64,000 bases of DNA from an uncultured Gemmatimonadales bacterium (GCA_963748815.1 CAVVKJ010000017.1:63567-127566); one strand, 5' to 3'; numbered from the stretch's first letter, positions 1-18,104 are shown. A program made the numbers and translations. The notes: generated by a model from the sequence alone, not told the origin.

Positions 1-283
1 TCCCCGCATGCCAGCGTGGATCCCAGACCAGGTGCGGCTCGACGCGCGCAACCTGCGGTACCAGCGAGAGAGCGTCGAGGATGTTTGCGGTGATGAGTTG
101 TTCCATCGGGCAGCCAGGGGTGGTGAGGGTGTACGTGACCGTCACGGCGGGCCCGTCGACCTCGAGGTCGTACACCAGCCCCAGGGTGACGATGTCGAGC
201 CCGATTTCAGGATCAATGACGGTGCGGAGCGCGTCCCACACGAGCCCGTCGAGGGGGGCACCGGGAAAGGCGGCCTGGGTCAT
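1..283 (-). CDS. Metal-sulfur cluster assembly factor (DUF59/SufT/MIP18 family), 3' end runs off the window
   Basis: Hand translation from ATG at 283: MTQAAFPGAPLDGLVWDALRTVIDPEIGLDIVTLGLVYDLEV...TLTTPGCPME, containing the DPE-x-GL and TxxGCP motifs of DUF59. ATGA overlap with the upstream stop. Confidence 0.9.
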   Translation of the reverse strand, partial: MTQAAFPGAPLDGLVWDALRTVIDPEIGLDIVTLGLVYDLEVDGPAVTVTYTLTTPGCPMEQLITANILDALSLVPQVARVEPHLVWDPRWHAG

Positions 284-1547
284 GGGGTTCTCCGTGCCAG
301 CGCAAGCATTTGGGCAGCCTCGACCATGACTCCGGATGTCCAGAGCAGGGCGCCGGTCCGCGCGATCCCGGCCTGCGCCGCCACCACGCCGACCAGGAGC
401 AGCGCAACGCCGAGCAGGAGCAGGGCGCCGGCCGCCCCAGCCAGGCGCGCGGAATAGAGGTCGCTCACCCGTGAGATCTTCCCCTTGCCGGCCAGCGGTC
501 CGAACCGATGATACCAGACGAGGAAGGGGACAATCTTGTAGTAGAGCGCCGCAACGAAGAGGCTGATGCCCAGCACCAGGGCCAGGACGTAGGCCAGCGA
601 CGCGCGCGGAGACGGGTCGATGAGCAGCGCCACGGCGGCGAGCACAAGCGCCGCCGCCAGCACACCAAGGGCGAACGCGGCCGATCGCATGCCAGGATCG
701 AGTGCGGGCCGATGCCGATGGCGATAAAATGCCCGCGCCTGGAGCAGCAGGGCCACGAGGCCGCCACCGAACAGGAGTGTCGGAAGCCAGCGGCTGACGA
801 TTGCCGGCCCATGATGCCCCACCGTGAGCGTCGCGGCGCCGGCGGCCAGCAACCCGACCGCCGCCCTGGCGAAGCGGTCCCCGGCGCCGTGGCTCAGCAG
901 GAACATCGGCAGGAGCCGGTGGGCAACGCCGGCGATGACCAGGAGAACCCACCCGAACAGGGCGACGTGCAGGTGGGTGCGGAGCGCGACCGGCCGCTCG
1001 ACGCCGAGAAAACCCCACTGCCGGTTGCCGGCGAGCGCCAGGCCCAGGACGAGCGTCACCAACAGGAACAGATCCGCGCCCGGCGAGCGCCCACCAGGTG
1101 AGGTCGCGCGCGGTGGCCCGCAGCAGCGTGGCGGCCAGGTTGATGATGAAGACAAGCAGTCCGGTGCCGAGCGACGCTGCGCCGACCAGCATCAGCGGTG
1201 AGATCTGCGAAGATCAGGCCGGCCACGAACACGGCGACGCCCGGCACGTACAGGGCAAAGGCAACGTGGCCGGCGGGAACCGACTTGATCGGTTCGCCGA
1301 GCGCCACGGGAAGGAACTGGTAGAGCGCCCCCATGATGGACGTGGTCATCCAGCCCAGGGTAAAGAGATGCGTCACGCCGAGAACCGCAGGGAGCGGAAA
1401 GGCGCCGGCGGCCAGGTCAGGCGCGACCCAGATCAGCCCGACCGCCCCGAGGCCCAGGAACACGATGGCCGCCGTGAAGTGCTCGCCTGGAAGCCGGAAC
1501 GGCGGGGCCTTGGCGGCGGCCAGGCCCATGGCAGGGCCGCCCGTCAC
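280..1547 (-). CDS. Multi-pass membrane protein with His-bearing helices (heme-copper-oxidase-like/NnrS-like), two frameshifts
   Basis: Joins ORF 1056..1547 (HLFTLGW...GALYQFLPV), an intermediate frame (SPLMLVGAASLGTGLLVFIINL...DLTWWALAG) and ORF 280..1155 (HLHVALFGW...HRLLPMF, YKIVPFLVW). Indels near 1200 and 1085. Confidence 0.65.
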
Positions 1548-2629
1548 GAGAGGCCCGCCCAGTCGGCTGTCGCGAGGTGTCGCATCCCGAGGGCCTCGCG
1601 CACGCCGCGCGCCAGGTGCCGGAAGCAGGCCGCCGTGGGCCCGTCGGCCCGCGCCAGCATTGCAGGAGCCCCAGCATCACCATCGATCACGGTGCTCTCC
1701 TCGAACGGGACTCGGGCCAGCAACGGACTCCCCGTCTTCTCGCTGAGCGCGGCGCCGCCGCCCTGTCCGAAGGGGTGCGAGATCCGGCCGCACTCACACA
1801 CCGCCTCGCTCATGTTCTCCACCACCCCGAGCACCGGCACCCCAAGCTTGCGAAACATCTCGACGGCCTTTCCAGCCTCCAGCACCGCCAGGCGCTGCGG
1901 CGTCGTCACCACCACCGCCCCGCCCACCTCGATGGCCTCCGCCAGGGAGAGCGGCACATCGCCGGTTCCTGGCGGGAGATCGACGACGAGGATGTCCAAC
2001 TCCGGCCAGACCACACCCCGGGCGAATTGCTTGACCGCCTTGCCGACCAGCGGGCCGCGCCAGACCGCGGGTGACTTGGCGCCGAGGAAGAAGCCGAACG
2101 AGACCACCGGCATCCCGAACGCCTGAAGCGGAATGATCTGGTGCTGCTCCGTCATCCGGACGTGGCGAGCGCCATCCTCAATACCCATGAGCACCGGGAC
2201 CGAGGGGCCGTAGATATCGGCGTCGAGCACGCCGACACGAAGGCCCAAGTCCTGGAGCGCCAGCGCCAGGTTGACGGCAACGGTGCTCTTGCCGACGCCG
2301 CCCTTCCCCGCGCCGACCGCGATGACATGCCCGACGCCAGGCAGGCGGACCCGATCGGCCGCGGGCAGTGCCTGGGTGGAGGCGGCGGGTTCAGGCGTGA
2401 GGATCTGGATTTCAGCGCGCACGGCGCCAGCGCGGGCCAGTCGGTCGCCAATTGCCTCGCGGAGCTGATTCGGCACATCCTCGCGCGCCGTTGAGATCCG
2501 GAGGGACACGTGGACTCGGTCGTTGCGAACCGCAATCGAGCGCACCAGCCCGAGGGCCACGATATCCCGGTTGAGCCCCGGATAGGGAACCTCCGCCAAC
2601 GCCGCCCGAACGGCAGCTTCCGTGAGCAT
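1544..2629 (-). CDS. mrp: Mrp/NBP35 (ApbC) Fe-S cluster carrier ATPase
   Basis: GKGGVGKST P-loop, DADIYGPS, DLPPGTGD, VENMSxxxCxC, N-terminal DUF59-like domain. Own GGAGG RBS and ATG at 2629. Confidence 0.92.
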   Translation of the reverse strand: MLTEAAVRAALAEVPYPGLNRDIVALGLVRSIAVRNDRVHVSLRISTAREDVPNQLREAIGDRLARAGAVRAEIQILTPEPAASTQALPAADRVRLPGVGHVIAVGAGKGGVGKSTVAVNLALALQDLGLRVGVLDADIYGPSVPVLMGIEDGARHVRMTEQHQIIPLQAFGMPVVSFGFFLGAKSPAVWRGPLVGKAVKQFARGVVWPELDILVVDLPPGTGDVPLSLAEAIEVGGAVVVTTPQRLAVLEAGKAVEMFRKLGVPVLGVVENMSEAVCECGRISHPFGQGGGAALSEKTGSPLLARVPFEESTVIDGDAGAPAMLARADGPTAACFRHLARGVREALGMRHLATADWAGLS

Positions 2630-3256
2630 TACGCCTCCATCCGGTATGCGCAGGAGGTGTCTCGCCGGCATGTAGCTCACCCGGGTCAGCTCCTCGCCGA
2701 GCAGTCTCCTGATGAGCCCGATTTCCGCCACGCATGGGATCCGCGTCGAGCGGACCAACTCGCGAATCGGGCAGTGGCATAGGCGGAGGCGTGGTGCGCC
2801 GTCGTCCTCCTCGACCACCGCCATGAATCCGAGCTCCGAAAAGATTCGTGCCACTTCGGCGACTCGCGCCCGGCCCCGGAGGTGACGCACCCGCGCCAGT
2901 GCATCGGCCCGGCGTCCGCCGATGCGCCGCTCGAAGAATTCCCGGAGCACTTCGGCCTGCCCCGACTTGACCAGGTGCGCCGCGAGATCCCGGAGGGTTT
3001 CTCCCTCTCGACGCGGAAAGAGCGGGTCGGCCTCCGGCGTGAGGCCGTACACCACCTCCGGGCGGCCGGGACCGCTGCGCTGGGTTCCCTCGCGCCGCAC
3101 CAGCCCGGCACCGACCAGCGACTTCAGGTGTCCACGGATCGTCTCGATGTTGAGCCCCACTTCGGCCGCCAATTCGGGAATGGTGGCGTGACCCCGACGC
3201 TTGAGCAGGTCAAGGATGGATCGCTGGCTTTCACCGAGGCCTGGGGCGCTGATCAT
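2629..3256 (-). CDS. SufR-like HTH transcriptional regulator (frameshifted near the C-terminus)
   Basis: N-terminal wHTH (TIPELAAEVGLNIETIRGHLKSL...GPGRP..Y.LT), CHCP and C..E motifs. The C-terminal DTSCAYRMEA* lies in another frame and ends at a TAA that overlaps the mrp ATG. Confidence 0.8.
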
Positions 3257-3621
3257 CGGCGTCCCACCTGATCGGCCATCATCGTGTCGAGGAACTCCTT
3301 CAGGACCACCGCCTGGTTGTGCTCGGTGTCGTGCGCGGCGTACAGCAGCGTCACGTCGCCGGCCGCAGCGGCCACGAGCAGCGGCGTCAATGCACCAGGG
3401 TTGCGCTCCAGCTCATGGGAGTAGCGACGGTGGAACTCTCGCCACTTCTCGGGATCATGGCCGAACCACCGGCGGAGCTCGGTGCTTGGAGCCACGTCCT
3501 TGAGCCAGGCGTCCAGCTTGAGCGCCGTCTTGCGGACGCCGCGCGGCCAGAGTCGGTCGACAAGAATGACGCGTGACCCATCGTGGGCGGCGGGCTCGTA
3601 GGCGCGTCGGATTCGGATCAT
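3253..3621 (-). CDS. DUF488 family protein (YeaO-like)
   Basis: RxY...LVDRLWPRG...W.K..APS.ELR.WF.H signature; GGAGGGAGG RBS. Confidence 0.9.
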   Translation of the reverse strand: MIRIRRAYEPAAHDGSRVILVDRLWPRGVRKTALKLDAWLKDVAPSTELRRWFGHDPEKWREFHRRYSHELERNPGALTPLLVAAAAGDVTLLYAAHDTEHNQAVVLKEFLDTMMADQVGRR

Positions 3622-3687
3622 CTGTCCTCCCTCCCTCGATGGGGTATCCAGCCTCCAGTGCCGCGGCGAATGGACTCCCCGAAGGGC

Positions 3688-3733
3688 AGCTTAGGGTCAC
3701 GCATTGATATTGTCAAGGCAATGGCCTTGATAA
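3688..3733 (-). promoter_or_regulatory. Sigma70-type promoter (TTGACA-N17-TAAGCT) overlapped by a palindromic operator TTGTCAAGGC-AATG-GCCTTGATAA
   Basis: Minus-strand -35 at 3716-3711 and -10 at 3693-3688 with a 17-bp spacer. Inverted repeat 3710-3719/3724-3733 with one mismatch. AT-rich patch upstream of the DUF488-sufR-mrp operon. Confidence 0.75.
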
Positions 3734-4414
3734 ATAATCGCAGTCACGGAACCTCGGGCGCGGGTGGGTTAGGTGACCGCGGTCCCCGCACCCTCGCGTC
3801 AGTGCCCGGATTCGGGCACGCAACGCCGGCACCACCTGGCGCTCGAACCAGGGGTTCCGCTGGATCCACGGCTGATTGCGCGGCGACGGATGGGGAAGCG
3901 GCAGGAACTCCGGCTCGTATTCCCGCCAGGCCCGGACCGTTGCGGAGAGCGTGGGCTTGCGGCGGCCGGCCAGGAAGTGACGCTGGGCGTACTGTCCGAC
4001 CAGCAAGGTCAACTCGACGCCGGGCAGCCGTGCCAGGAGGTGTGGGAGCCAGAGGCTGGCGCATTCGCGCCGCGGCGCCACATCACCGCCGTTGCCCCGG
4101 CCCGGGTAGCAGTATCCCATGGGGATGATCGCGATCCGTGCTGCGTCATAGAAGGTTTCCGGCTCGACTCCCATCCACCGCCGCAGCCGTTCGCCGCTCG
4201 GGTCGTCCCAGGGAACACCGGTGGTGTGGACCCGGAGCCCGGGCGCCTGCCCTACCACGAGAATGCGGGCGGTCACTCCGGCACAGAGCACCGGGCGCGG
4301 ACCGAGCGGCAACTCCGCCTCGCAGGCGCGACAGGCCCGCACCATGTCCAGGACCGCCGCGAGCGTCGCGTCGGGTGGAATCCGGGCGGCTCCGGTTGGT
4401 GTCGCGAGGGTCAC
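3713..4414 (-). CDS. Uracil-DNA glycosylase family protein
   Basis: CxxC...VGQAPG...PWDDPSG.RLR.W...CYPG...LPHPSPRN. GTG at 4414 overlaps the upstream TGA. Confidence 0.88.
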   Translation of the reverse strand: MTLATPTGAARIPPDATLAAVLDMVRACRACEAELPLGPRPVLCAGVTARILVVGQAPGLRVHTTGVPWDDPSGERLRRWMGVEPETFYDAARIAIIPMGYCYPGRGNGGDVAPRRECASLWLPHLLARLPGVELTLLVGQYAQRHFLAGRRKPTLSATVRAWREYEPEFLPLPHPSPRNQPWIQRNPWFERQVVPALRARIRALTRGCGDRGHLTHPRPRFRDCDYLSRPLP

Positions 4415-4761
4415 GGGGCGGGCGCCGCCTGATCCGCCATCGCCTGGAGCGCAATCACCGAATGCGCAAATGCGCCCCCCGCGCGCATTTCCGCGCCGAC
4501 CCAGATCGCCTCCATGATCTCCTGCTCCGTGGCACCGGCATGCAGCGCCCCCTTCGTGTGCCCCCGGATGCAGTAGGGACACTGGGTCACATGCGCCACC
4601 GCCACGGCCATCAACTGCTTGGTCTTCGCATCCAGCGCCCCCGCCGCAAACACTTGCCGGCTGAACTCCCGGAAAGCGTGATCGGTCTCGGGCGCCAGGT
4701 CCCGCCGCTTGGCCGAGAGCGCCGCGCTCGGGGTCGGATACATCGATGCGTCCTGGTCCAT
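4411..4761 (-). CDS. Carboxymuconolactone decarboxylase/AhpD-like protein
   Basis: GALDAKTKQL.AVAVAH..QCPYCI..H...A...GAT..EI.E motif. Confidence 0.88.
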   Translation of the reverse strand: MDQDASMYPTPSAALSAKRRDLAPETDHAFREFSRQVFAAGALDAKTKQLMAVAVAHVTQCPYCIRGHTKGALHAGATEQEIMEAIWVGAEMRAGGAFAHSVIALQAMADQAAPAP

Positions 4762-4997
4762 TGATCCTGCTCCATTCGTCCGTGGTACCGGGAGCCCTCC
4801 CGTAGGTGAACAGTGTCGCGCGCGTCCGCGCGCGCCAATAGCCCGTTTGTACCATCGGGATCAACACCGATCACGGGGTAGGAGCGATTCAAGGAACCTT
4901 CACCCTCCTTTCACCCCCACCACACCGGTGCGGGTCTACCTTGGTGCCATTCACGACCGCACCCGACGGTCCCATCCCGTCACAAGGAGAGACACCC

Positions 4998-5486
4998 ATG
5001 CCTCAGGTTTCCACCGTGCCCCCCGAGGCCCTGCCCCAGATTCCCAGCGCGCTTCAGGTGGAGCATCGGGTCATCCATGAGGCGCTGCTGCGTGCCACCA
5101 AAGCTCCTGGCGACATCGGCACCGCGGCCCGCGAACTCGCGGGGGCGCTGCATGACCACTTCGTCCGGGAAGAGGAGATCGCGCTGCCCCCGCTCGGCCT
5201 GCTGGCCGCGCTGGCGCGAGGTGAGTTTACGCCCGAGATGCGAGCCGTGCTGCCGATGACCGAGGCGCTGCGGGCCGAACTCCCGCGGATGCTGGACGAG
5301 CACCAGGCGATTCACGCCGCCACGCGCCGGCTGGGCGAGGTGGCGCGGAAGGCCGGGAACGCGGAGGTACAGCAGTTGGCGGAGGCGCTTGCCCTCCACG
5401 CCCAGAGCGAGGAAGAAGTCTTCTATCCCGCGGCGCTGCTCGTTGGCGAGGTCGTTGAGTCCCGCTCGCAGGCGCACGGATCATGA
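4998..5486 (+). CDS. Hemerythrin-like (HHE) domain protein
   Basis: EH..IH, HFVREE, EH.AI, HAQSEEEVFYP di-iron motifs; AAGGAGA RBS before ATG 4998. Confidence 0.82.
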   Translation: MPQVSTVPPEALPQIPSALQVEHRVIHEALLRATKAPGDIGTAARELAGALHDHFVREEEIALPPLGLLAALARGEFTPEMRAVLPMTEALRAELPRMLDEHQAIHAATRRLGEVARKAGNAEVQQLAEALALHAQSEEEVFYPAALLVGEVVESRSQAHGS

Positions 5487-6032
5487 GCGCCATGCTGGAG
5501 CTACCCGACCGGGCCGCGCTCCGGCCCGCGCTACCCGGCCTCGCACTGGCGGTGCTGACCCTGCTGTTTGGCTTCGGCCTTGGGGGAGTGTTCGGCTTGG
5601 ACGAGGATGCCATCAAGTCCCGCCTGTCGGCCTCCGCGGCCGCCGTGCAGGCGTCGGTCTATCAGGGGGACCACGCCACGGCCCAGGCCGTGGTGGCCAA
5701 GTCGTGGACCTACATGCAGCGTGCCCACCTCCACGCCGGGAGCCTCGGCACGGCCGCCGTGGTGCTGACCATCCTCGTTGTCCTGCTTGGCGCTTCGCCC
5801 GGCGTCACCCGCGCCATCAGTATCGGCCTCGGGGCCGGAGCGCTGGGATATTCCGTCTTCTGGATGTGGGCCGGCTTCCTGGCGACCTTCACTCGGGAGT
5901 ACCGGTGCGGCCAAGGAGGCGCTCCGGTGGTTGGCCGTGCCGTCGTCCGGGGCGATCCTGGTGGCCACCTCCGCCGCCGCCGTCCTCTGCGTCCTCCCCC
6001 TCATCCGCCGACGGCGGCCTCCGGAGGCGTGA
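5483..6032 (+). CDS. Conserved hypothetical membrane protein (RAHLHAG motif), frameshift near 5890
   Basis: Hydrophobic helices in ORF 5483; the C-terminus continues in ORF 5778..6032 (GSTGAAKEALRWLAVPSSG...). ATGA overlap with the hemerythrin gene. Confidence 0.65.
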
Positions 6033-6045
6033 CCCGGCGGGCCGT

Positions 6046-6709
6046 TCAGCCGAGTAGTCCCCGCTGCTGCGCGTGGGTCACCGCCTCCAGGCGGGTGCGG
6101 GTGCGCAGCTTCTGGTTGATGTGGTGCAGGTGGTTGCGGAGCGTCTGCGGGGAAATGTCCAATTGGCGGGCGATGGCCGTGGAGTTGCGGCCTGCGGCGA
6201 AGAGCTTGAGGATCCGGCACTCCTGCTCGGACAGCGGGCTCACCGGCGCATGGTGCTGGCGCGTCGTCCACCAGCGCGAGTAGCTGGCGGGCTGCCTCCT
6301 GTGCCCGGCCGAACAGCTCCGCCTGGCGTCGTGTCTGCGTCACATCTCGCGCCAGGCGCATGAACAGTCGGTGCCCGGTGCGCCGGTTATCGAAGACAAT
6401 GGTGGAGACGCCCACCCAGATCAGCGCACCGGACCGCGTGCGGACGCACAGGTCGAAGGTCGGGATGCCACCCGGCGCACCATCCCACTGCCGAGCCGCC
6501 GCCTCGGCGCCTCCCGCGAGCGCGCTGGTGCCCAGCGCGTCGTGGGCCTCGAGCACCTCGTCGATGCTGCGATGGAGCACCTCCTCCGCCGCGTGGCCGA
6601 AGAGCCGTTCCGCAGCGCCATTCCAGAAACAGATCTCACCCTGGTCGGTTACCGCATACGCCGCATCCGCGGTCCGCTCGAACAGCGCGAACAACTCCGC
6701 TTCCAGCAT
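6046..6709 (-). CDS. PAS-domain LuxR-family one-component regulator, frameshift near 6255
   Basis: PAS (DAAYAVTDQGEICFWNGAAERLFG) in ORF 5531..6730; LuxR HTH (LSEQECRILKLFAAG...IARQLDISPQTLRNHL..INQKL....RLEAV) in ORF 6046..6243. Confidence 0.85.
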
Positions 6710-6860
6710 CGGACCCTCGCTCTCGTGCACGCTCGGCGCGTGACAGGCGTACCACCCGACCGTACGATCACTTCATTGTCACCCAGGGCAGGGTTCGTCA
6801 TCCTGCCGGTGTCGTGGCGCGCACAAATGTTGACTGGCATTTCCACTCAGGAGACTCATC

Positions 6861-7287
6861 ATGACACGGCTTGGCACGCTCGCTCTCGCCGCCGGCCTCG
6901 GACTGGGGCTGGTGATCGCATCCCCAGGGGACAGCGGCCGCACAAAAAAAGGCACCCCCCGGTGGAGCCTACAAGGAGGTCAGCACCCTGGTGCCCCTGC
7001 CCAACTACCTGCCCGGCCTCGGAACGCTGTATGTCGATCCAGCGACTTTGCCTGCAGGCCCGTTCCTGGCCTACGACCATCAGGGGAGCCTGGTCAGTTC
7101 AATCTACATGATCCCGCTCAAGGACTTGGACGCCCACAAGGCGTTCACCGATCTCAAGACGGCTCACGAGCCGGTCGATCACGTGGAGATCGTGTACAAT
7201 GCCGGCCACCCCGGCGTGGCAGAGCCGCACTATCACATGATTGTCTGGTATGTGTCGGCCCAACGCGCGGCGAGCCTGGCGAAGTGA
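6861..7287 (+). CDS. Secreted hypothetical protein with a His-rich C-terminus (GHPG...PHYH), frameshifted
   Basis: Signal peptide MTRLGTLALAAGLGLGLVIA after an AGGAG RBS; the mature part is in ORF 6991..7287. Confidence 0.6.
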
Positions 7288-7881
7288 CCAGGCTGGACCG
7301 TCGTGACTTCCTTCGGCTCGGCGGATTGGCATTCGTCGGCCTTGGCGTTGCGCCGGTCCGGCACTTGGCCGGCGCGCGGCGCCTCGGGGTGGCCGGTCAT
7401 CTGGCCACGGCACCCGAGGTGATCGAGATGCGCAGTGACCTGCTGGGTACGAGGGTCTGGTTTGATCCCGTCGGGCTCTACGTGGAACCTGGCACCACAG
7501 TCCGGTGGGTCGCTCGGGAAAACGTCCACACGACCACCGCCTACACTCCGCGCAACGCAAATCACCCGCTCCGCATTCCCGACGGCGCGGTGCCCTCGGA
7601 TTCAGGGTTCCTGGTGCACCCCGGTGACCACTTCGACGTGACGCTGACCGTGCCCGGCGTGTACGACTACTACTGCATGCCGCATGAAGCCGCGGGGATG
7701 GTGGGCCGGATCGTGGTGGGCAGGTCCAACGATTCGGCTGCCCGGCCGTTCGACTACTGGGTGGGGCAACCAGGCACCGACCGGCTGGACCCACGTGCCC
7801 GAGGCCGCGCGAACGACGTTCCCGACGGTGGCGCGGATACTGTCCGAGCGCCGGGTGCATGCGCCGGAAATGGGGAAATAA
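7284..7881 (+). CDS. Tat-exported plastocyanin/azurin-family blue copper protein, frameshift near 7780
   Basis: DRRDFLRL Tat motif; WFDP.G..V.PG.TV.W; HT...; YDYYCMPHEAAGMVGRIVV type-1 Cu ligands. Confidence 0.88.
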
Positions 7882-7882
7882 G

Positions 7883-9310: not shown

Positions 9311-9370
9311 TATCGGCGCCCATGCCACCGGCCACGCACGAGGCTGGCCCAGCCCAGGAGGGGAAGCAGA

Positions 9371-9844
9371 ATGGAACATCGGCTCAAGTACGGCGCAGTG
9401 GCACCCGAAGGGGTTCAGGCGCTGCTCGGCATCGAATCGTATGTGCGGCAGAGTGGGCTCGAGCCCGGGCTGCTCCACCTGGTCAAGACCCGGGCCTCCC
9501 AGGTCAACCGCTGTGCCTACTGCATTGACATGCACACCAAGGATGCCCGCGCGGGGGGCGAAACCGAGCAACGGATCTACGCGCTGTCGGCATGGCGCGA
9601 GACGCCGTTCTTCACGGAGCGGGAGCGCGCCGCGCTGGCCTGGACCGAGGCGATCACCCTCATCGGCCATGGGTCGGTCCCCGAGGCGCTGTACGACGAA
9701 GCCCGCCGATCCTTCAGCGAAAAGGAACTCGTGGACCTGACGCTCGGCCTCATCGCCATCAACGGCTGGAACCGGCTGGCCATTGCGTTCCGCAGCGTGC
9801 CGGGGACATACCAGCCCATGAAGCGTTCCGAAACCCGCGCCTGA
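9371..9844 (+). CDS. AhpD-like alkylhydroperoxidase family protein (YdfG-like)
   Basis: LVK.RASQ.N.CAYC.DMH...WRE..FF..RERAAL.W.E..T...IN.WNR. Confidence 0.9.
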   Translation: MEHRLKYGAVAPEGVQALLGIESYVRQSGLEPGLLHLVKTRASQVNRCAYCIDMHTKDARAGGETEQRIYALSAWRETPFFTERERAALAWTEAITLIGHGSVPEALYDEARRSFSEKELVDLTLGLIAINGWNRLAIAFRSVPGTYQPMKRSETRA

Positions 9845-10539
9845 TGTCAGGCCACACCCATGGAGCCACAGTCATGAACGCATATCACGCGAAGCGCGTC
9901 GCCCAGGGATCAGCCCTCGTCCCCATTCTCCTTGCCGCCTTGGCGTTGCCAGCCAGTGCCCAGCAGGCGGCCACCCGCCCATCTACGGTCAGGTATGTGG
10001 CGCAACTCTCCGCGCTCAACTCGGCGGCGGCCGGCGGATCGGCAACCGGCGAGGCCACGTTCACCATCACCGGCGACAGCCTGACCATCACGGTTACCGC
10101 GAGCGGGTTGCCGAAGGACATCACTCACTGGCAGCACTTCCATGGATTCCCCGAGGGGCAGCCCGCCGCGTGCCCGAACGCCTCCTCGGATGTGAACCAC
10201 GACGGGATCATCGACATTGTCGAGACCGAGCCGGCGGCAGGGACGACCATGGTGCCCTTGACCGACAACCCGGCCGGCATGGACGTGGCGCACGGCATTT
10301 ATCCGAAGGCGTCGGCCACCGGAACGTTGCAGTACACGCAGACCGTCTCCCTGGCCGAACTGCAGGCCGCGTTCGGCAAGGCGTTCCCAGGCAAGTCGCT
10401 GGACCTCGACCGGCGTGTCGTCTTCCTGCACGGGGTCCCGAGCACCACCGTCCTCCCGGCGACGGTCGCTTCGCTTGGGCCGATCCCCGCGGCGGTCACG
10501 CTGCCGATTGCCTGCGGCCGGATTGCCCTGGCCGAGTAG
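9844..10539 (+). CDS. Secreted CHRD/Cu-SOD-fold-like protein
   Basis: Signal peptide ...ALPASA; HWQHFH, RRVVFLHG and PIACGRI recall Cu/Zn-SOD strand motifs. Start could be 9875. Confidence 0.55.
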   Translation: MSGHTHGATVMNAYHAKRVAQGSALVPILLAALALPASAQQAATRPSTVRYVAQLSALNSAAAGGSATGEATFTITGDSLTITVTASGLPKDITHWQHFHGFPEGQPAACPNASSDVNHDGIIDIVETEPAAGTTMVPLTDNPAGMDVAHGIYPKASATGTLQYTQTVSLAELQAAFGKAFPGKSLDLDRRVVFLHGVPSTTVLPATVASLGPIPAAVTLPIACGRIALAE

Positions 10540-10564
10540 CGTGCGGGGCCCGCAGGTTGGCATC

Positions 10565-11606
10565 ATGGCAGCAAGGCGACGCATCTTCTCCGGCGTCCAG
10601 CCGACCGGTGCTGCCGCACCTGGGCAATTACCTCGGGGCGATCTCGCTCTGGGTGGCCATGCAGGCGGAGTACGAGGCCGTCTTCTGCATTGCCGACCTG
10701 CACGCGCTGACAACGCCCGACACCGTAAACCCCGCCCACCTCCGAACCGCCGTACGCGATACCGCCGCCATCCTCCTGGCCTCGGGCGTGGACCCCGCAC
10801 ACGCCATCCTCTTCGTGCAGTCCCGCGTGCCGGCTCACGCCGAGCTGGCGTGGCTCCTCGGCACAGTCACGCCAGTCGGTTGGCTGGAGCGCATGATCCA
10901 GTTCAAGACCCGTTCCGCCGAGGGCGACAGCGTGGGCGCCGGCCTGCTTGCCTATCCGGTGCTCCAGGCCGCGGACATCCTGCTCTATCGGACTGACGTG
11001 GTGCCGGTCGGCGAGGACCAGCGCCAGCACATCGAGCTCACCCGGGACATCGCGCGCCGCTTCCACGGCCTCTTTGGAGAGGTATTCACGCTGCCGGAGG
11101 CGCTATACCGGTCCGGCGGGGCCCGGATCATGGGCCTCGACGACCCCGGCACGAAGATGAGCAAGAGTGCCGGACGGCACCGGGCCCGCCACGCGATCGG
11201 GCTGGTTGATTCACCCGACAGCATACGCGATGTGATCATGCACGCGGTGACTGATGGAGGGCGGGAGGTTCGGGCCGACGACCTCTCGCCGGGGGTGGCC
11301 AACCTGGTGACGATCTACCAGCTGCTGACCAGCCGTTCCCGCGGGGAGGTGCTGGCCGAGTTCGAAGGAAAGGGCTATGCTATGTTGAAGGCGTCCGTGG
11401 CCGAGGCAGTCATCTCGACCCTCGACCCGATTCAGCAGCGCTATCGCGAGTTGTCCGCCGAGCCGGAAGCCCTCGACGCGATACTCGATTCCGGTGCCGA
11501 GCGCGCCCGGCCGCTGGCGGGGGCGACTCTTGAGCGGGTCAAACGGGCAATGGGACTCGACGCGCCGCCGCCGCCACCCGGCGCCCGGCTGAGCGCCATA
11601 GCCTGA
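10565..11606 (+). CDS. trpS: Tryptophan--tRNA ligase (probably an accessory copy), frameshift near 10612
   Basis: FSGVQPTG (frame of ORF 10415) then HLGNYLGA, ADLHALT, YPVLQAADIL, VPVGEDQ.QH.EL.R and KMSKS (frame of ORF 10170). Confidence 0.93.
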
Positions 11607-11672
11607 AGCGGCCAAGACTTTCCGCGCACGCTCGTCCAATTTCCACAACCACCTCATCGCGAAGGGATTCCC

Positions 11673-12218
11673 ATGTCCTTTCAAGACAGCATCTGGCTGA
11701 CCACCCTCGTCGGGATCACGGGGGTCGCCTTGGTGTTTCTCTACGTGATCAGCCAGTCGGGCCGGCAGGAGGAACCGTCGGCCGTCCAGGCCCGGGCCTA
11801 CGCGCTTCGGAGGTGGGTCTTCGGTGGGTTGATCGCCCTGGGCGGTTCGTGGTGCACCGGCGCCAGCTTGCGGCCCTTCCCCATCGCGCCGCAACACACG
11901 CTTCAGCCAGCACCGCAGGTCATTCGGGTCGTCGGGCACCAGTGGGACTGGCAGGTGGATTCCGGTCCGATCCAGGCCGGAATCCCGGTGGCGTTCGAGG
12001 TCACCAGCGCCGACGTCAATCACGGCTTCGGGATCTACGATGCGGATGGTCACCTGCTGGGCCAGAGCCAGGCCATGCCCGGCGTGACCAACCGGCTGGT
12101 GCACACATTCACCCAGCCCGGCAAGTACCGCATCCTCTGTCTTGAGTACTGCGGTTTGGCCCATCACGGCATGATCCTCGAATTCGACGTCGTCGCCGGC
12201 GCGGAGGAACAGTCATGA
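11673..12218 (+). CDS. norS: Heme-copper oxidase subunit II-like protein with CuA site (sNOR small subunit)
   Basis: Two TM helices; G.QW.W; TSADVNHGF; CLEYCGLAHHGM CuA motif. Confidence 0.85.
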   Translation: MSFQDSIWLTTLVGITGVALVFLYVISQSGRQEEPSAVQARAYALRRWVFGGLIALGGSWCTGASLRPFPIAPQHTLQPAPQVIRVVGHQWDWQVDSGPIQAGIPVAFEVTSADVNHGFGIYDADGHLLGQSQAMPGVTNRLVHTFTQPGKYRILCLEYCGLAHHGMILEFDVVAGAEEQS

Positions 12219-13690
12219 GCGCCCTCCACCCCGGGAATGAGATCCTGCCTCCGCGCGAACGTGGCGCCCTCACCCTGTACCTGGTAACCACGCTGGCGCT
12301 GCTCCTGGTGCTGATGGTGTTCGGGCTCCTGATGCGCATGGCGCAAGGCACCTGGCTCCATGTTCCACCCACGCTCTTCTATCAGTTGATGACGGCGCAC
12401 GGCGCGGGAATGGTCGGAACCGTGGCGCTGGGCGGGAGCGCGGTGATGTGGTACTTCCTCCGCAAATATGTGTCGCTGAGCCTCCCCATCTTCTTGACCA
12501 ACTACATCCTGTTCATGCTGGGTGCCGTCCTCCTGCTGGCGGCCACCTTCCTCGGCCACTACGCCGGCGGCTGGACATTCCTCTACCCTCTCCCCGTCAA
12601 GTCGATGGGCATCTGGAGCGTCGGGGCCGCCGCCCTGTTCATGACGGGGTACCTGCTTATCGGCGTGGGCTTCCTGCTCTTCTATCTGGACGCCATGCGC
12701 GCGGTCATCCGGGTCTATGGCAACCTGGGCCGCGCCCTCGGCGTGCAATGGCTCTTCGGCGGCATCATCGACAAGACCCATCCGCCGACCGTGGTCGCCA
12801 GCGCCATGGTGATCATCGTCAACTCGCTCGGCATCCTGGGCGGGGCCGTCGTCCTGGTCATGAGCCTGCTCAACGCCTACGCGCCCGAGATCGTGCTGAG
12901 CGCCCTGTTCGTCAAGAACCTGATCTACTTCTTTGGGCACGTCTTCATCAACATCAGCATCTACATGGCCGTGATCGCCGTGTACGAGTTGCTCCCCCGC
13001 TATACCGGCCGGCCCTGGGGCGTCTCGCGCCCCTTCCTGTGGGGCTGGGCCGCGAGCACCGTGATGGTGCTGATCGTCTATCCGCACCACCTGTTGATGG
13101 ACTTTGCCATGCCTCGCTGGGCGGCGGTGTTGGGCCAGATCATCTCCTACACCAGCGGCCTGCCAGTCTTCACCGTTACCGCGTACGGCGCCCTCACCAA
13201 CATTTACCGCTCCGGCGTGCGCTGGCGCCTGCCCGCCATGCTGCTGATCCTCTCGATGTTCGGCTGGGCGGCGGGGATCATCCCCGCCATCATCGACGCC
13301 ACCATCAGCGTCAACCGGGTCATGCACAACACGCTCTGGGTCCCCGGCCATTTTCATTTCTATCTGCTGCTCGGCGTGCTGCCCATGCTGCTGGCGTTCA
13401 TGTACCACCTGATCGGCGGTGAGGCGGACCGCCCCGACCGAGGGGGGGACCGGTCGGCGTTCGCCCTCTATGTCCTTGGCGGGTTGGCATTCGTCCTGAT
13501 GTTCCTTGCCGGGGGGCACGCCAGTGTGCCGCGGCGCTGGGCGGTGCATGAATCCGGGTGGCAGTTCTACGATCAGGTGGCCTCGGTCGCGGCGGCGGTC
13601 GTGATCGTGGCAATGCTCTGGTTCACCGTGCGCCTGTGCCGCGGACTGCTCCACGGGCCGGCCGCATCGGCCCCGTCGCCTGGCAGGTGA
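12215..13690 (+). CDS. norY: Heme-copper oxidase superfamily subunit I, predicted sNOR-type nitric oxide reductase
   Basis: MTAHG, GWTFLYPLP, FFGHVFIN (Asn at His+4 instead of Tyr), YPHH, HNTLWVPGHFH; about 12 hydrophobic segments. Confidence 0.8.
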   Translation: MSALHPGNEILPPRERGALTLYLVTTLALLLVLMVFGLLMRMAQGTWLHVPPTLFYQLMTAHGAGMVGTVALGGSAVMWYFLRKYVSLSLPIFLTNYILFMLGAVLLLAATFLGHYAGGWTFLYPLPVKSMGIWSVGAAALFMTGYLLIGVGFLLFYLDAMRAVIRVYGNLGRALGVQWLFGGIIDKTHPPTVVASAMVIIVNSLGILGGAVVLVMSLLNAYAPEIVLSALFVKNLIYFFGHVFINISIYMAVIAVYELLPRYTGRPWGVSRPFLWGWAASTVMVLIVYPHHLLMDFAMPRWAAVLGQIISYTSGLPVFTVTAYGALTNIYRSGVRWRLPAMLLILSMFGWAAGIIPAIIDATISVNRVMHNTLWVPGHFHFYLLLGVLPMLLAFMYHLIGGEADRPDRGGDRSAFALYVLGGLAFVLMFLAGGHASVPRRWAVHESGWQFYDQVASVAAAVVIVAMLWFTVRLCRGLLHGPAASAPSPGR

Positions 13691-14307
13691 TGTCGGCCCT
13701 GCGCACCGCGGTCCTCAGCGTTGCCCTGCTGGTGGCGGGAGGGGAAGGGATTGCCATCGCCACCGACGGATTTCGGGCGTTCACGACCGAGACGGCGCGT
13801 CGGCTTGCGGTGCGCCGTCGGCCGGTCGGGCTTCCGGCGGTACCGCTCGAGAATCAATCCGGCGTGGCATTCACCGTGGACGATCTTCGTGGCCGGTGGG
13901 TGCTGGTGGATTTCATCTACACTCGCTGCCTGACAATGTGTGCGGTGCTCGGCGGCGACTTCTCGCAACTCGAGCGCCAACTGGCGGAGCCGATTGCCCG
14001 GGGCAGGCTCCAGCTCCTGAGCGTCAGTTTCGATCCGGCGCACGATGCGCCCGCCGACCTGGCCTCCTATCTCACACGGTTCCGGGGCCACGGGCCGGGT
14101 TGGGAGGCTGCGCGACCCGTCGCGGAGGAAGGGCTGAAACAGATCACCACGGCATTCGGAATCACGGTCATTCCGGATCAACTGGGTGGCTATACCCACA
14201 ATGCGGCGATTCACCTCGTGGACCCCGCCGGCAGGCTGGTGGATATTTACGACGTGGGCCAAGTGGAGTTGGTCACGCGGTCCGTCCTGGACCGACTCAC
14301 GCCGTGA
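13690..14307 (+). CDS. senC: SCO/SenC copper chaperone
   Basis: DFIYTRCLTMC (CxxxC), SVSFDP..D, HNAAIHLVD. Confidence 0.9.
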   Translation: MSALRTAVLSVALLVAGGEGIAIATDGFRAFTTETARRLAVRRRPVGLPAVPLENQSGVAFTVDDLRGRWVLVDFIYTRCLTMCAVLGGDFSQLERQLAEPIARGRLQLLSVSFDPAHDAPADLASYLTRFRGHGPGWEAARPVAEEGLKQITTAFGITVIPDQLGGYTHNAAIHLVDPAGRLVDIYDVGQVELVTRSVLDRLTP

Positions 14308-15122
14308 GGATCCCGCGCGGGTCGCATCCGCTCGGCGGGGGCGCGCTGATTGCGCTGGTGTCGCTCGTGCCGCCGGTTCGTCACGCTCTGGAAGCAAGCA
14401 TGACGGCGCAAATGCTGGTGCAGATCCCGCTCCTCATCGGGGCGGGCTGCCTGCTCGCGCCTGTCGTCCCCACCCGTGTGCCGGCCCGCATCCATGCCTG
14501 GAATCAGGGCGGCGTTGCCGGGCTGATCCTGGCCACCCTCGTCGCCACGTTCTGGATGCTGCCGCGCTCGCTCGATGCCTCCATTTCCCATCCGCTCATG
14601 GCGGCGGCAAAGCACCTCTCGGTGCCGCTCCTCATCGGCCTGCCCTTTGCCCTGAGCTGGCCGAAGATGGGATTCGTCGTCAGGGGAGTCCTGCTGGCGG
14701 AGGTGGTCGCCACCTTTTTCCGTCTGGGCTGGCTGTACTGGGTGTCGCCCATCCGGCTGTGCAACAATTATGGACTGGATGACCAGCGGCGCCTGGGCGC
14801 CTACATGCTGGTCCTGGGTGGCGGGTTGTTGGCCTGGCTCGGCTGGAAGCTGCTCATGGGGCGCTTCGACTCAGGCGCACCCTCGCCGGGAAGCCTGCCC
14901 CCCGCAACGGATCACTGGGAGTGGACCCCCGCCGAGCTGTCCCCGGAGGCCGCGAGTGCCTACGAGGATGCGCGACTCCGTGGTCTGTGCCATGAGGGAG
15001 CACTGGAGGCAGCACTCGGAGCGGCACAACGGCTGCCTATCCCCACAGCGTCGCATCCGCCACCCGCCCTGTCTCGTCCAGCCGGCGCTCGTGTGCCGTC
15101 AGCAAGTCGCTCCGGGAAATGA
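14304..15122 (+). CDS. Membrane protein (CtaG-like / 'orf1' of sNOR clusters) with a soluble C-terminal extension
   Basis: LE.SM..QMLVQ.PLL, FWMLPR.LD, RLCNNY..DDQ; GTGA overlap with senC. Confidence 0.65.
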   Translation: MRIPRGSHPLGGGALIALVSLVPPVRHALEASMTAQMLVQIPLLIGAGCLLAPVVPTRVPARIHAWNQGGVAGLILATLVATFWMLPRSLDASISHPLMAAAKHLSVPLLIGLPFALSWPKMGFVVRGVLLAEVVATFFRLGWLYWVSPIRLCNNYGLDDQRRLGAYMLVLGGGLLAWLGWKLLMGRFDSGAPSPGSLPPATDHWEWTPAELSPEAASAYEDARLRGLCHEGALEAALGAAQRLPIPTASHPPPALSRPAGARVPSASRSGK

Positions 15123-16827
15123 TGCCGACCACCCTCCTCGATCCGTCCTCCGCCACCACCGGCAGGCGGCCCACCTTGGCGCGGACCATTCGATCCGCCG
15201 CGTCCCGAAGGGATTGGTGTCCCTCGATCACGATGGGCGGGTGGAGGATGAGGGCGCGGAGCGGCGTGTCCTCCGCCACCTCGGGATTCTGGATATCCCG
15301 TCGAGTCAGGAGGCCCACCAGCCGGTCCTCCCCATCGACGATTGGAAATCCCTGGTGGGTTGACGCATTTTCCCCCGACAGCCAGATCCGCGTCGCGGCC
15401 ACCGTCGCGTCGGCGGGAAGTGTCACCACCGATCGGGTCGAGTGGTCCCGCACCAGGAGTCGCTCCAGGAAGTCCGCCGAGTATTCGGTGATGACCGGCG
15501 TGCCGCGCCGCGCGAGTCGCTCCGTCATGATGGTGTAGCGCATCGTACGGAGCGAGATCAGGTACGCCCCGGTGCACCCCGCGAGCAGCGGCAGGAGCCC
15601 CATCGGCTGGTGCGTCGCCTCGAAGGCGAAGACCACTGACGCGAGGAGGGCTCGCGAGGCACCGGTGAACGCCGCGGCCATTCCCACCAGTCCGGCGACC
15701 CGGGGATCGATGCCCAGCATCGGGAGGAAGGCGGCTGCTCCAGCTCCGACCAGCACGCCGGCGCCACCACCGATCGTGAAGAGCGGCGCGAGCGTCCCGC
15801 CGGCGGTCCCGCTGCCGAGGGCAATCGACCAGGAAATCGATTTTGCGATGACGAGGAGGAGCAGTGCCTGCCCGGCCAGGCTGCCGTCCAGCAGGTGCTG
15901 GATGTTGTCGTACCCGACACCGAGGGTCCGCGGAGAGAGGTACCCCATTAGGCCGACCACGATGCCGCCGAGAGCCGGCCACCACATCCAGTGAATCGGG
16001 AGCCGCTCAAAGGCGTCCTCAATGCGGTAGAGCCCCTTGGTAATGACGACGCCAAACCAGCCGATGAGGACGCCGATGACGGTGTAGGCGGCCAGCGCCA
16101 TCCCCGACGGAGTGGCAATGAACTCCATCGGGAAGACCGCAGCCGGACCGTGCACGGCGATGCGGAAGCCGGCCGCCGCTGCCGAAGCGAGCGCCACCGG
16201 TGCCAGCGATCGCGGCCGGTACTCGAAGAGGAGCAATTCGACAGCGAGGAGAGTCGCCGAGACCGGGGAGCCGAACACCGCCGACATGCCAGCCGCCGCG
16301 CCGGCCGCCAGCAGCGTCTTTCGCTCGTCGGCCGTGACCCGGAGCGCCTGCCCCACCAGCGACCCGAGGGCACCGCCGGAGGCGATGATCGGACCCTCGG
16401 CACCGAAGGGACCTCCGGTGCCGATCGAGATGGCGCTCCCGATGGGCTTCAGGAGGGTGACACGCGGGGGAACCCGGCTTTCGCCCACCAGCACCCGCTC
16501 CATGACCTCGGGAATCCCGTGACCACGGATTGCGGGGGAGCCCCAGCGCGCCACCACGCCGACCACCAAGCCGCCGAGGACAGGGATCCCGATCACCCAG
16601 GGGCCGAGGGTGTTCTCCGCGGGTGACGAGAAGGCGAGGGACCAGCGCCCGTAGAACGTCAGATTGGTGACGAGTCCGATGAGCGCCATGAGCGCCTCAG
16701 CCAGCACCCCGGCGCCAAGGGCAATGACGATGGCAAGCCCGGAAACGAGGAGCAGGCGTCGATCGGCTAGGGGAGCGAATGCGGGCGCGGAGTGGTGCGG
16801 CGCGGCGGCATGGTTTGATTCAGTCAC
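15037..16827 (-). CDS. ClC-family chloride channel/antiporter with a C-terminal CBS pair
   Basis: GHGIPE, GGPFGAEGP, GAAAGMSAVF, GVGY, GGTLAP; CBS repeats (GFPIVD, RLPVV). Confidence 0.92.
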   Translation of the reverse strand: MTESNHAAAPHHSAPAFAPLADRRLLLVSGLAIVIALGAGVLAEALMALIGLVTNLTFYGRWSLAFSSPAENTLGPWVIGIPVLGGLVVGVVARWGSPAIRGHGIPEVMERVLVGESRVPPRVTLLKPIGSAISIGTGGPFGAEGPIIASGGALGSLVGQALRVTADERKTLLAAGAAAGMSAVFGSPVSATLLAVELLLFEYRPRSLAPVALASAAAAGFRIAVHGPAAVFPMEFIATPSGMALAAYTVIGVLIGWFGVVITKGLYRIEDAFERLPIHWMWWPALGGIVVGLMGYLSPRTLGVGYDNIQHLLDGSLAGQALLLLVIAKSISWSIALGSGTAGGTLAPLFTIGGGAGVLVGAGAAAFLPMLGIDPRVAGLVGMAAAFTGASRALLASVVFAFEATHQPMGLLPLLAGCTGAYLISLRTMRYTIMTERLARRGTPVITEYSADFLERLLVRDHSTRSVVTLPADATVAATRIWLSGENASTHQGFPIVDGEDRLVGLLTRRDIQNPEVAEDTPLRALILHPPIVIEGHQSLRDAADRMVRAKVGRLPVVAEDGSRRVVGIISRSDLLTAHERRLDETGRVADATLWG

Positions 16828-16994
16828 GTGGCTCTACCGGATACAGAAGGTCACTGGCACTCGGGGAGCGGCGGTCCACCGGGAACTCGCCGGGATATCG
16901 CTGGCAGACAAGGTAGCAGGATTTGGCTGGTTGCTGAAGCGATTCGGTGTAACTCGTCCCCAAGTTTGCCCTCGGATGTTAGATTTCGCTTCCT

Positions 16995-17195
16995 ATGGAC
17001 CGCAGCTCTTACCCCACGCGAAAACGCCGCCTCCGGGACCCGGAGGACTTTGTCGAACTGGATGCCCTCTCGCCTGCGGCTCGGCTGGCCATGGTATGGC
17101 CACTCACAATGCAGGCGTGGGCATTCCACACCGGGCTCACTCATGAACCCCGACTTTCTCGAGATGTTGTCCGCACTCTCCGAGGCGGGCGCTGA
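16995..17195 (+). CDS. Small hypothetical protein, putative partner of the downstream nucleotidyltransferase
   Basis: 66 aa; SPAARLAMVWPLT..AW...RLSR.VV; overlaps the next gene by 53 bp; TAGATT lies 9 nt upstream. Confidence 0.55.
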   Translation: MDRSSYPTRKRRLRDPEDFVELDALSPAARLAMVWPLTMQAWAFHTGLTHEPRLSRDVVRTLRGGR

Positions 17196-17580
17196 GTTTC
17201 TGGTCGTCGGGGCCCACGCCTTGGCGGCTCACGGACGCCCACGGGCGACGGGGGACCTCGATCTCTGGGTCCGCCCCACCCCGGACAATGCCGATCGGGT
17301 CTACGCCGCGCTCCGACGGTTCGGCGCGCCACTCGATGACCTGCGCGCGGCTGAGTTGACTCGTGCTGACTTGGTGTTCCAGATCGGCGTGGCGCCGGCC
17401 CGTATCGACCTGTTGACCAGCATTTCGGGCGTGAGCTTCGAGGAAGGCTGGGCGTCCCGCATCTCGGTCACGATTGGCACGCTGCAGGTCCCGGTGATCG
17501 GACGCGAGTGCCTCATCCAGAACAAGCGGGCGGCGGGGCGGCCCCGGGACCTTGCAGATATTGCGGAACTAGAGGAATAG
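17143..17580 (+). CDS. Minimal nucleotidyltransferase (Pol-beta superfamily, DUF6036-like)
   Basis: VVGAHA..HG.PRATGDLD; RIDLL; NKRAAGRPRDLAD. Confidence 0.85.
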   Translation: MNPDFLEMLSALSEAGAEFLVVGAHALAAHGRPRATGDLDLWVRPTPDNADRVYAALRRFGAPLDDLRAAELTRADLVFQIGVAPARIDLLTSISGVSFEEGWASRISVTIGTLQVPVIGRECLIQNKRAAGRPRDLADIAELEE

Positions 17581-17682: not shown

Positions 17683-17698
17683 CGATATTTCAGGTCAG

Positions 17699-17772
<74 letters not shown>

Positions 17773-17861: not shown

Positions 17862-18104
17862 CTATTCGTCCCAGTCCCCGCCGCGCTTGCGGCGCGGCTT
17901 CGGATCGTCCTCGTCGTCGATGTCGAATTCCTCGTCGTCGAGATCGTCGTCGTCCTTTTCCTCGTCGTCGAGCTCCTCGTCGTCGAGATCATCCTCGTCG
18001 TCTTCTTCCTCAAAACTGAAACCATCATCCTCGAACTCGTCGGCATCCTCATCAAATCGCGGCTTCCGGCCCACGACCGCGGTCGACGTCTCCCAGGCCC
18101 ACAT
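17862..18104 (-). CDS. Small, extremely acidic (D/E-rich) hypothetical protein
   Basis: GGAGGGAG RBS; 80 aa dominated by DDEE repeats with a basic KPRRKR tail. Confidence 0.65.
   Translation of the reverse strand: MWAWETSTAVVGRKPRFDEDADEFEDDGFSFEEEDDEDDLDDEELDDEEKDDDDLDDEEFDIDDEDDPKPRRKRGGDWDE

Follow-up and report, generated by a model that had tools for sequence, protein, structure and literature searches.

Genomic islands that target tRNA genes and grow by tandem accretion are a well-established general class of mobile DNA. Two better delimited systems are also pertinent to the island considered here. One is the sNOR of ammonia-oxidising bacteria, for which the literature (PMC11214002, PMC4940428, 10.1101/765727) gives the gene order norSY-senC-orf1, a subunit I that is related to the B family and lacks the cross-link tyrosine, and a subunit II with CuA. 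Nitric oxide (NO) reduction by sNOR is, in PMC11214002, proposed and not demonstrated, while a transcriptome paper (10.1101/765727) reports its upregulation 2.7-10.8-fold under oxygen limitation in Nitrosomonas and proposes a high-affinity oxidase. The other comprises the mobile nitrate-respiration region (drpAB) of Thermus thermophilus and the denitrification clusters of Haloferax with their P-loop Fe-S carrier, where, according to PMC6282519 and PMC11218638, DUF2249, Fe-S carrier and blue-copper genes cluster on mobile or island-like DNA with nitrogen-oxide respiration genes, and induction, including that of the DUF2249 genes, occurs under denitrifying conditions. The subject here is an island at a tRNA-Ile gene of an uncultured Gemmatimonadales bacterium (genome G000; 3.16 Mb, 86% complete). 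Most of it lies in a 64,000-nucleotide stretch, the window in what follows (GCA_963748815.1 CAVVKJ010000017.1:63567-127566, or G000:C17:63567-127566, a window position being the C17 position minus 63566). It has flanking tRNA repeats, empty counterparts in relatives, a conserved gene order, near-identity across species, and two regulator genes each paired with a motif of its own.

The island is ~21.5 kb long, with 28 genes. The 3' end of tRNA-Ile(GAT), which is on the minus strand at 17698-17772 (17695-17772 with the right repeat) and is the integration target, forms the right repeat (17695-17720) and recurs with 25 of 26 bp at G000:C17:59729-59754, the sole such copy of the tRNA 3' end that BLAST finds in the genome. 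Because this left repeat is 3.8 kb outside the window, the element extends to that length. A preliminary description, made from the sequence alone, had seen a 17-kb block of about 24 closely packed genes in 1-17580, integrated beside the tRNA and ending about 120 bp from its 3' end. The integration is borne out by the direct repeat and by four congeners (G001, G002, G012, G014) in which the left flank joins the tRNA region without the island, and the last stop codon of 1-17580 is indeed 118 bp from the tRNA 3' end. The block is real and tightly packed, though its length was underestimated and the gene count for that interval is 22, several of the genes being split by frameshifts. The six further genes are on the minus strand at C17:59954-63546 and, leftward from the window edge, specify a triple DUF2249 protein (frameshifted), a 246-amino-acid protein without family, a DUF2249 protein, a cupin, a DinB protein and a FolD-like protein; their order is the same in G003, G006, G008, G013, G016 and G041.

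In its duplicated tRNA 3' end, empty sites in relatives, patchy distribution and several stacked scars the element resembles other tRNA-targeting islands. It differs from them in that the unit has no tyrosine integrase (PF00589 has no match inside it in any of five genomes, nor on the G000 contig; serine recombinases were not searched for), and in internal patches that point to homologous recombination. Its G+C is near that of the host (0.655-0.70), with median GC3 0.82 versus 0.89. Further elements are stacked at the same tRNA behind scars of their own (G016:C42:47500-66400, G003:C5:152500-172300 and G013:C8:1110400-1127800), their cargo including a P-type ATPase with Cus-like efflux genes (named by eye) and a CDF transporter, together with a DsrE/SQR-like pair in G016, integrase-like remnants seen by eye in G003 and, in the tRNA-proximal element of G013, a PF00589 integrase.

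sNOR is present in 5 of 16 congeners and in 9 of 40 relatives, one of the nine being a distant type with 41% identity. The long form of the island is found in G003 and G016. Three congeners (G006, G008 and G013) have a short form without the middle 8 kb, from UDG to TrpRS, so that DUF488 and norS are directly divergent. In a genome of another genus of the same family (G041, whose coordinates are also those of G050), everything from the FolD-like gene to the CLC gene is present in the same order and spacing at 75-80% nucleotide identity (68-92% for amino acids), with a Rieske/FAD reductase in place of the CMD protein. The tRNA scars, 44-48 bp in G003, G013, G016 and G041, bound the unit exactly in G041 and likewise bound the short form in G013. 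Completeness is 98% for G008, 99% for G041 and 63% for G010. The last of these has, at a contig end 1.6 kb from tRNA-Ile, a partial CLC gene (G010:C138:38206-38665) and no sNOR match; it may be another carrier.

The sNOR operon is on the plus strand, has its genes arranged as in ammonia-oxidising bacteria and consists of norS for the CuA subunit II (11673-12218), norY for subunit I (12215-13690), the SCO gene senC (13690-14307) and orf1 (14304-15122), the last of which the preliminary description had missed. norY, B-family-related as in those bacteria, has the six heme and metal His (H62, H242, H291, H292, H379 and H381, invariant in 6/6), no cross-link Tyr, and an Asn, N246, four residues past H242. 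An Asn at the place of the oxygen-reductase Tyr is what we take to be the sNOR hallmark. norS retains CuA ligands in the form of a His plus C-x-E-x-C-x3-H-x2-M. The island sNOR is 68% identical to the copy in Nitrococcus mobilis, and the closest relatives with titles are from Gemmatimonadales. Among the best 80 of at least 560 related loci (49 of the 80 with 18 kb or more), norS accompanies subunit I in 78, SCO in 79 and orf1 in 77, and the most frequent additional neighbour is an NsrR-like Rrf2 gene (14 loci), which the island does not have; one representative was scanned and has NsrR as its best match at 117 bits, below the cut-off of 182. The 65 sNOR loci outside Gemmatimonadota, where single-sequence tblastn may have missed distant homologues, have TrpRS once and PrpD, hemerythrin, PAS-LuxR and the heme-copper oxidase (HCO)-fold protein never, and DUF488 and UDG once each, AhpD and CLC three times each, blue copper four times and CMD five times. 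sNOR is thus a known unit that usually travels without the other island genes. The co-occurrence across genomes that had been suggested for this set holds within one family, where the unit recurs, and not outside Gemmatimonadota, where TrpRS, PrpD, hemerythrin and DUF488 are nearly absent beside sNOR.

A more distant heme-copper enzyme, 36-41% identical to norY, is found in 6 of 150 genomes of the order and possibly constitutes a separate sNOR-like subfamily. The Asn was seen in G021 and L147, where the gene is behind a PQQ dehydrogenase gene and the second motif described below, with no SCO gene (L033:2781-6454 in G021, L147:5406-10723); L144 is a further locus of the enzyme.

The left module is an operon read on the minus strand from 3621, through DUF488, a SufR-like regulator, Mrp, a membrane protein and DUF59 to the genes left of the window. 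The DUF488 protein that heads it (3253-3621; PF22752, E 6.6e-43) is of the N3i subclade. The SufR-like helix-turn-helix (HTH) protein (2626-3256) scores 46 bits with TIGR02702, against a cut-off of 179, and resembles SufR in its C-terminal Cys cluster (C160, C162, C175 and C203, invariant in 6/6); it differs also in having no adjacent suf operon, sufBCDS being absent from the Pfam and NCBIfam matches of the island. It is predicted to be the Fe-S sensor of the left operon. The Mrp/ApbC Fe-S carrier ATPase that follows (1544-2629; PF10609, E 8e-85), with an N-terminal DUF59, had been taken to be fused to it; the two are separate open reading frames in G003 and G016. The membrane protein (280-1547), overlooked earlier, has 12 helices and the fold of HCO subunit I (TM ~0.7 to cbb3 and aa3 subunit I, predicted structure at pLDDT 91.8), with three invariant His. 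Two 1-nt indels break its gene in G000, which in G016 is a single gene of 421 amino acids. At the left edge is a DUF59/FeS_assembly_P protein (1-283, ending just left of the window; PF01883, E 2.6e-18). The HCO-fold protein recalls the HCO-homology families, reportedly described by Pei et al. 2014, in its fold, its reduced His set and its position next to DUF2249 genes; it differs in that the intact protein has no NnrS or COX1 Pfam match at E 1e-4, and it is not assignable to a subfamily. A second paralogue (37%) is at G000 C8:125650-126966.

Upstream of this operon, at 3710-3733, is an inverted repeat, TTGTCAAG-N8-CTTGAYAA, termed candidate operator 1, whose left arm is a -35-like hexamer for the operon. 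It occurs once in the window and never in 100 shuffles, and in 3.36 Mb of examined loci every occurrence precedes a SufR-like operon. Of the 11 genomes with a scanned SufR-like locus, 10 have the repeat; the two copies in G023 do not. In G006, G008 and G013 it is between the divergent left operon and norS, in G129 between a SufR-like operon and cbb3 genes, and in G107 before a cbb3-SufR-Mrp operon. The HCO-fold gene itself is present in 33 of 151 genomes of the order, and loci from 19 of the 32 other carriers, mostly the closer ones, were examined. DUF2249 is nearby in 15, DUF59 in 11-12, Mrp in 11, ScdA_N in 6, NirK in 5, a cbb3-type oxidase in 2 and NosZ in 1, and the regulator is of CRP/FNR type in 11 and SufR-like in 3, never both. 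The island resembles the Thermus and Haloferax clusters in its DUF2249, Fe-S carrier and blue-copper genes; it differs from them in having no nar, nir or nos genes, in its regulators, and in a module that includes the HCO-fold protein and DUF59.

The middle module has its own regulator, a protein with PAS and LuxR HTH domains (6046-6709, minus strand; 220 amino acids in G016, with a 1-nt indel in G000), predicted to be the activator of the module. The second motif, candidate operator 2 (GTACRAWC-N4-YATTG), has two copies in the window and none in 100 shuffles. The copies face outward, flanking a stretch with the PAS-LuxR gene, a hemerythrin-like protein (4977-5486, plus strand; PF01814, E 1.6e-9) and a membrane protein without family (5483-6032, plus strand; 1-nt indel in G000). 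The minus-strand copy at 4836-4852, which has a match in G041, faces the genes for a CMD/AhpD-domain protein (4411-4761) and a UDG-superfamily protein (~3755-4414), both on the minus strand and together spanning 3755-4761. The plus-strand copy at 6762-6778 runs into a -35-like hexamer and precedes a run of ten plus-strand genes (6861-15122) that extends from a TTHB210-like protein through blue copper, MmgE/PrpD, AhpD, SOD-fold protein, TrpRS, norS, norY and senC to orf1. Orthologues of PAS-LuxR were found in all three families of the order, in 13 of 151 genomes. Exact operator 2 is within 1.3 kb in seven of the 13, as an outward pair in six; setting aside the two genomes from which the motif was drawn leaves 5 of 11. 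Of the rest, three carry a one-mismatch version and three have none. The ten other PAS-LuxR loci have TTHB210 and blue copper in seven, DUF488 in six, PrpD and AhpD in three, SOD-fold protein and CMD in two, cbb3 in two, and TrpRS and UDG in one. In G137 a cbb3-type oxidase with the Tyr retained closes the run behind operator 2, in L071 the motif is directly before norS, and in G021 and L147 it precedes a PQQ dehydrogenase gene and then the distant Asn-type enzyme.

Scans for sigma-70 promoters and terminators gave 3 and 12 sites, near shuffle levels. With that same limit, no terminator was found in the gaps of the plus-strand run, which offers weak support for one transcript. An RNA run, X15, has listed contigs covering parts of UDG, hemerythrin, the membrane gene, PAS-LuxR, TTHB210, the SOD-fold gene, TrpRS, norY and SCO, with depth far higher on the hemerythrin and membrane genes; it is not used as evidence, as depth of contigs is no basis for ranking genes and DNA may be present in the run.

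The family assignments proposed for the genes of the block have stood: DUF59, Mrp, DUF488, UDG, two CMD/AhpD-domain proteins, hemerythrin, PAS with LuxR HTH, blue copper, MmgE/PrpD, TrpRS, COX2, COX1 and SCO, and CLC with CBS domains. Several functional labels have fared less well. The MmgE/PrpD-family protein (7883-9310; several indels in G000, intact with 473 amino acids in G016) differs from 2-methylcitrate dehydratase in scoring 105-163 bits against equivalog cut-offs of 458-950 and in the absence of prpB and prpC from the island. In G028 a ComA (phosphosulfolactate synthase family) gene directly follows its orthologue (L243:6170-8454), and similar pairs are seen by eye in L147 and G039; they may hint at its substrate. 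It and the divergent FolD-like gene (G000:C17:59954-60808) are the sole tblastn matches of their kind in the assembly. The protein called Cu-SOD-like (9880-10539, secreted) deserves that name at the level of fold. The Foldseek matches listed are Cu/Zn SODs or SOD-fold relatives (best E 3.5e-5, TM ~0.6 by target mostly), and a sequence search against PDB gave none. H83, H86, H88, H184, C98 and C212 are invariant in 76/76, with no invariant His in 89-183 and no Arg before C212, a motif reading, without superposition, against SOD features as we presume them to be. Across the wider family (1591 matches) a D-x-N-x-D-x3-D-x2-E stretch is invariant and is reminiscent of a calcium-binding loop, and one of 120 matches listed is named SOD. 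The second TrpRS (10565-11606), 44% identical to the housekeeping copy that G000 has besides it, forms its own clade with support of 100 in a quick tree from which the partial L177 was left out. Seven of seven metagenomic relatives with at least 70% identity are beside other module genes in new orders, as against 1 of 73 distant ones, a count that leaves out three with a weak FolD match. A TrpRS beside sNOR in the gammaproteobacterial locus L074 belongs to another clade and is not counted as the same link. The remaining genes of the run are the TTHB210-like secreted protein (6861-7287), the blue-copper protein (7284 to ~7900) and the AhpD-domain protein (9371-9844).

How does the island relate to nitrogen oxides in its host? 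G000 has nosZ and a NirK-like gene on another contig. The latter is under the TIGR cut-off, an orthologue matches solved copper nitrite reductases, and it has the expected copper motifs. A cNOR NorB query had no match in G000, G003, G016, G012 or G041 at E 1e-30, in a search with no positive control, and there are extra COX1 matches in G013 and G016. G000 likewise has no NO synthase match. sNOR could close its NO step. nosZ is present in each of the five congeners checked, and in G012 NirK occurs in the absence of sNOR. In two short-form genomes a cNOR cluster with norC (diheme), norB, norQ and a norD-like gene is inside the island, between CLC and tRNA-Ile (G008:C2:21757-26752 and G006:C8:1475-6470), putting two NO-reductase types side by side. 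The nosZ cluster of G000 (C11:68215-76032) has a short COX1-like membrane gene at its end, plus an Rrf2-like gene.

The middle of the island has apparently moved between species recently. G000 and G016 are 99.65% identical over window 2000-16000, as against 79.6% and 82.9% in the flanks, and G003 and G016 are 99.98% identical, as against 92.6% and 96.4%. At the left end G000 and G016 are 75.8% identical and G000 there matches G008 (82-96% per kilobase), while a 600-bp patch in Mrp of G000 matches both poorly. This mosaic of identities suggests homologous exchange between occupied sites. Of sampled words from the middle 10 kb, 89-91% are held by 14 public runs from 10 studies, and in one run, X6, a 32.8-kb contig carries the G016 form through to the scar. 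The frameshifts in G000 are most likely assembly errors, since the G003 and G016 counterparts of the island genes broken there (PrpD, PAS-LuxR, TrpRS, SufR-Mrp and others) are intact or separate, and since X5 and X9 contigs disagree with the assembly at each of the 12 listed indel places, and X6 contigs at 10. Core flank is affected as well, with five such indel bins in 8 kb. Could the mosaic itself, with its own left end and foreign middle, then be an assembly chimera of two co-occurring relatives, and recent transfer into the G000 lineage be unreal? The many small indels, and the lack among the contigs listed of one bridging G000's own left end into the shared block, would fit. However, the same excess identity holds between G003 and G016, the block is inside one 127-kb contig with lineage-specific ends on both sides, and, as a weak hint, X5 has pieces matching G000's own ends (depth ~3-4) beside the shared block (~11). 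A chimera is unlikely, and we allow it very little room.

The explanation we favour, though it may as easily be wrong as right, is that the island is an integrase-less mosaic of an sNOR operon and two separately travelling modules, serving low-oxygen respiration with nitrogen oxides present. The four-Cys SufR-like protein would hold an Fe-S cluster and bind the inverted repeat over the -35 element, so controlling DUF488, Mrp, the HCO-fold protein, DUF59 and DUF2249, an accessory set that may build or repair metal centres of respiratory enzymes. PAS-LuxR would bind the second motif beside its -35 element and activate the run from TTHB210, blue copper and the PrpD-like protein through AhpD, SOD-fold protein and TrpRS to sNOR. 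The blue-copper protein would be the electron donor, SCO would load CuA, and sNOR would convert NO to N2O and link NirK and NosZ in G000. The integrase of a neighbouring element may first have placed the unit, with spread now by recombination between occupied sites. That both modules occur with a cbb3-type oxygen reductase in the place of sNOR argues for low oxygen as the signal, and a nitrogen-oxide role is still likely, given the ties to NirK, NosZ and cNOR. Several points weigh on the other side. sNOR is biochemically uncharacterised, and one paper argues for an oxidase. G008 and G041 carry the island and no NirK was found in either. As many as 27 of the 40 exact operator 2 matches in 151 genomes are away from PAS-LuxR (a reversed control gave 4), and the four such matches inspected are without island genes. 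None of the ten other PAS-LuxR loci, some of which are on short contigs, includes sNOR. The two motifs, each with a -35-like hexamer, could be simple promoters and not operators. UDG, DUF488, TrpRS, CLC and the FolD-like protein have no demonstrated place in the mechanism, and the carriers are related to each other, so that counts across them are not independent.

Nearest to this explanation is a pure microoxic-respiration kit, in which sNOR scavenges oxygen as a high-affinity oxidase, can be exchanged for cbb3, and has to do with NO only incidentally. cbb3-type oxidases do occupy the place of sNOR behind both motifs (G129, G107 and G137), two nearly complete carriers (G008 and G041) lack a detectable NirK, and the induction in Nitrosomonas and the oxidase proposal already mentioned (10.1101/765727) are in keeping. 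Against that are the lack in subunit I of a cross-link Tyr said to be needed for oxygen reduction, the NsrR-like Rrf2 gene near sNOR in 14 of the 80 best loci, and the sharing of the island with cNOR in two genomes, so that we consider the kit unlikely while taking it seriously. A bolder form of our own explanation makes PAS-LuxR and the SufR-like protein two new Gemmatimonadota low-oxygen sensors, with their own operators, driving a copper-based chain that ends in cbb3 or sNOR; sNOR would be a stand-in for a high-affinity oxygen reductase despite having no Tyr, and the mobile unit would be spreading that capacity between species now. In that full form it is speculative and a shade less probable still. 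If instead the middle genes are a general-stress and copper gene pool, beside sNOR through a shared integration hotspot with no common signal, the company kept by close TrpRS relatives (Hva1-TUDOR, a second DUF488, UDG, sulfocyanin, PQQ dehydrogenase and sugar enzymes, in shuffled orders) is as expected, as are the metal-efflux and other elements behind separate scars at the same tRNA. The order and spacing kept by G041 at its nucleotide divergence, and motif 2 before HCO-ending operons in several arrangements (L071, G021, L147 and G137), make the pool a distinctly doubtful alternative.

The preliminary description had read all the genes as one NO-defence regulon, each guarding a known NO target. 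That nearly all map onto an NO target or sink was interpretation rather than observation. In its favour, another genus keeps the full set in the same order, NirK, ScdA_N and CRP/FNR regulators accompany the left module, and a review links the TrpRS II of Deinococcus to NO. Yet NO synthase (PF02898), the partner in that Deinococcus pair, is in none of five genomes here (controls positive; three of the five less than 90% complete), leaving no evidence for an NO label on TrpRS, any more than on PrpD with its low scores, UDG or CLC. There are two motifs, each tied across genomes to a different regulator gene and neither common to all promoters, and the modules travel apart, the middle 8 kb being missing in three congeners and island genes rare at sNOR loci outside Gemmatimonadota. 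FNR/DNR-like boxes are found only at two mismatches, with 8 matches versus ~4 expected. A regulon of the NsrR, NorR or DNR type would differ in having a single operator repeated at all promoters and such a regulator in the island; none of these regulators, nor hmp, hcp, nnrS or ytfE, is among the island's Pfam and NCBIfam matches. One NO regulon is therefore very improbable. What survives of it is the nitrogen-oxide link, through cNOR inside the island in G006 and G008 and NirK beside the left module in 5 of 19 loci, and not a single NO programme.

At the right end, the CLC channel with CBS domains (15037-16827, minus strand) is the last conserved gene of the unit. The lone nucleotidyltransferase-like gene beyond it (17143-17580, plus strand; weak Pfam matches) is peculiar to G000, being unmatched among the places listed in 16 congeners and in the 80 sNOR loci; relatives carry a tRNA scar where it stands, and it has no partner gene. 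Between tRNA-Ile and typA is a conserved, very acidic protein of 80 amino acids (17862-18104) with no Pfam family. The tRNA-Lys that ARAGORN calls at 18161-18247, within the 3' end of typA, is probably false and was set aside.

The openly licensed literature yielded no description of the island unit or of its two regulators, a search that did not extend to the motifs as text. As a tRNA-Ile cargo behind a SufR-like or a PAS-LuxR motif, the island copy of sNOR differs from its proteobacterial counterparts, which have an NsrR-like gene as commonest neighbour. As an element the island is unremarkable. What makes it of value is the pair of candidate regulons, together with the exchange of sNOR for cbb3 behind the same two candidate operators, which bears on whether sNOR reduces NO or oxygen. 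A mobile unit adding a putative step for making N2O, seen in near-identical form in the metagenomes of 10 studies, would bear on the counting of such bacteria as sinks or as sources of that gas.

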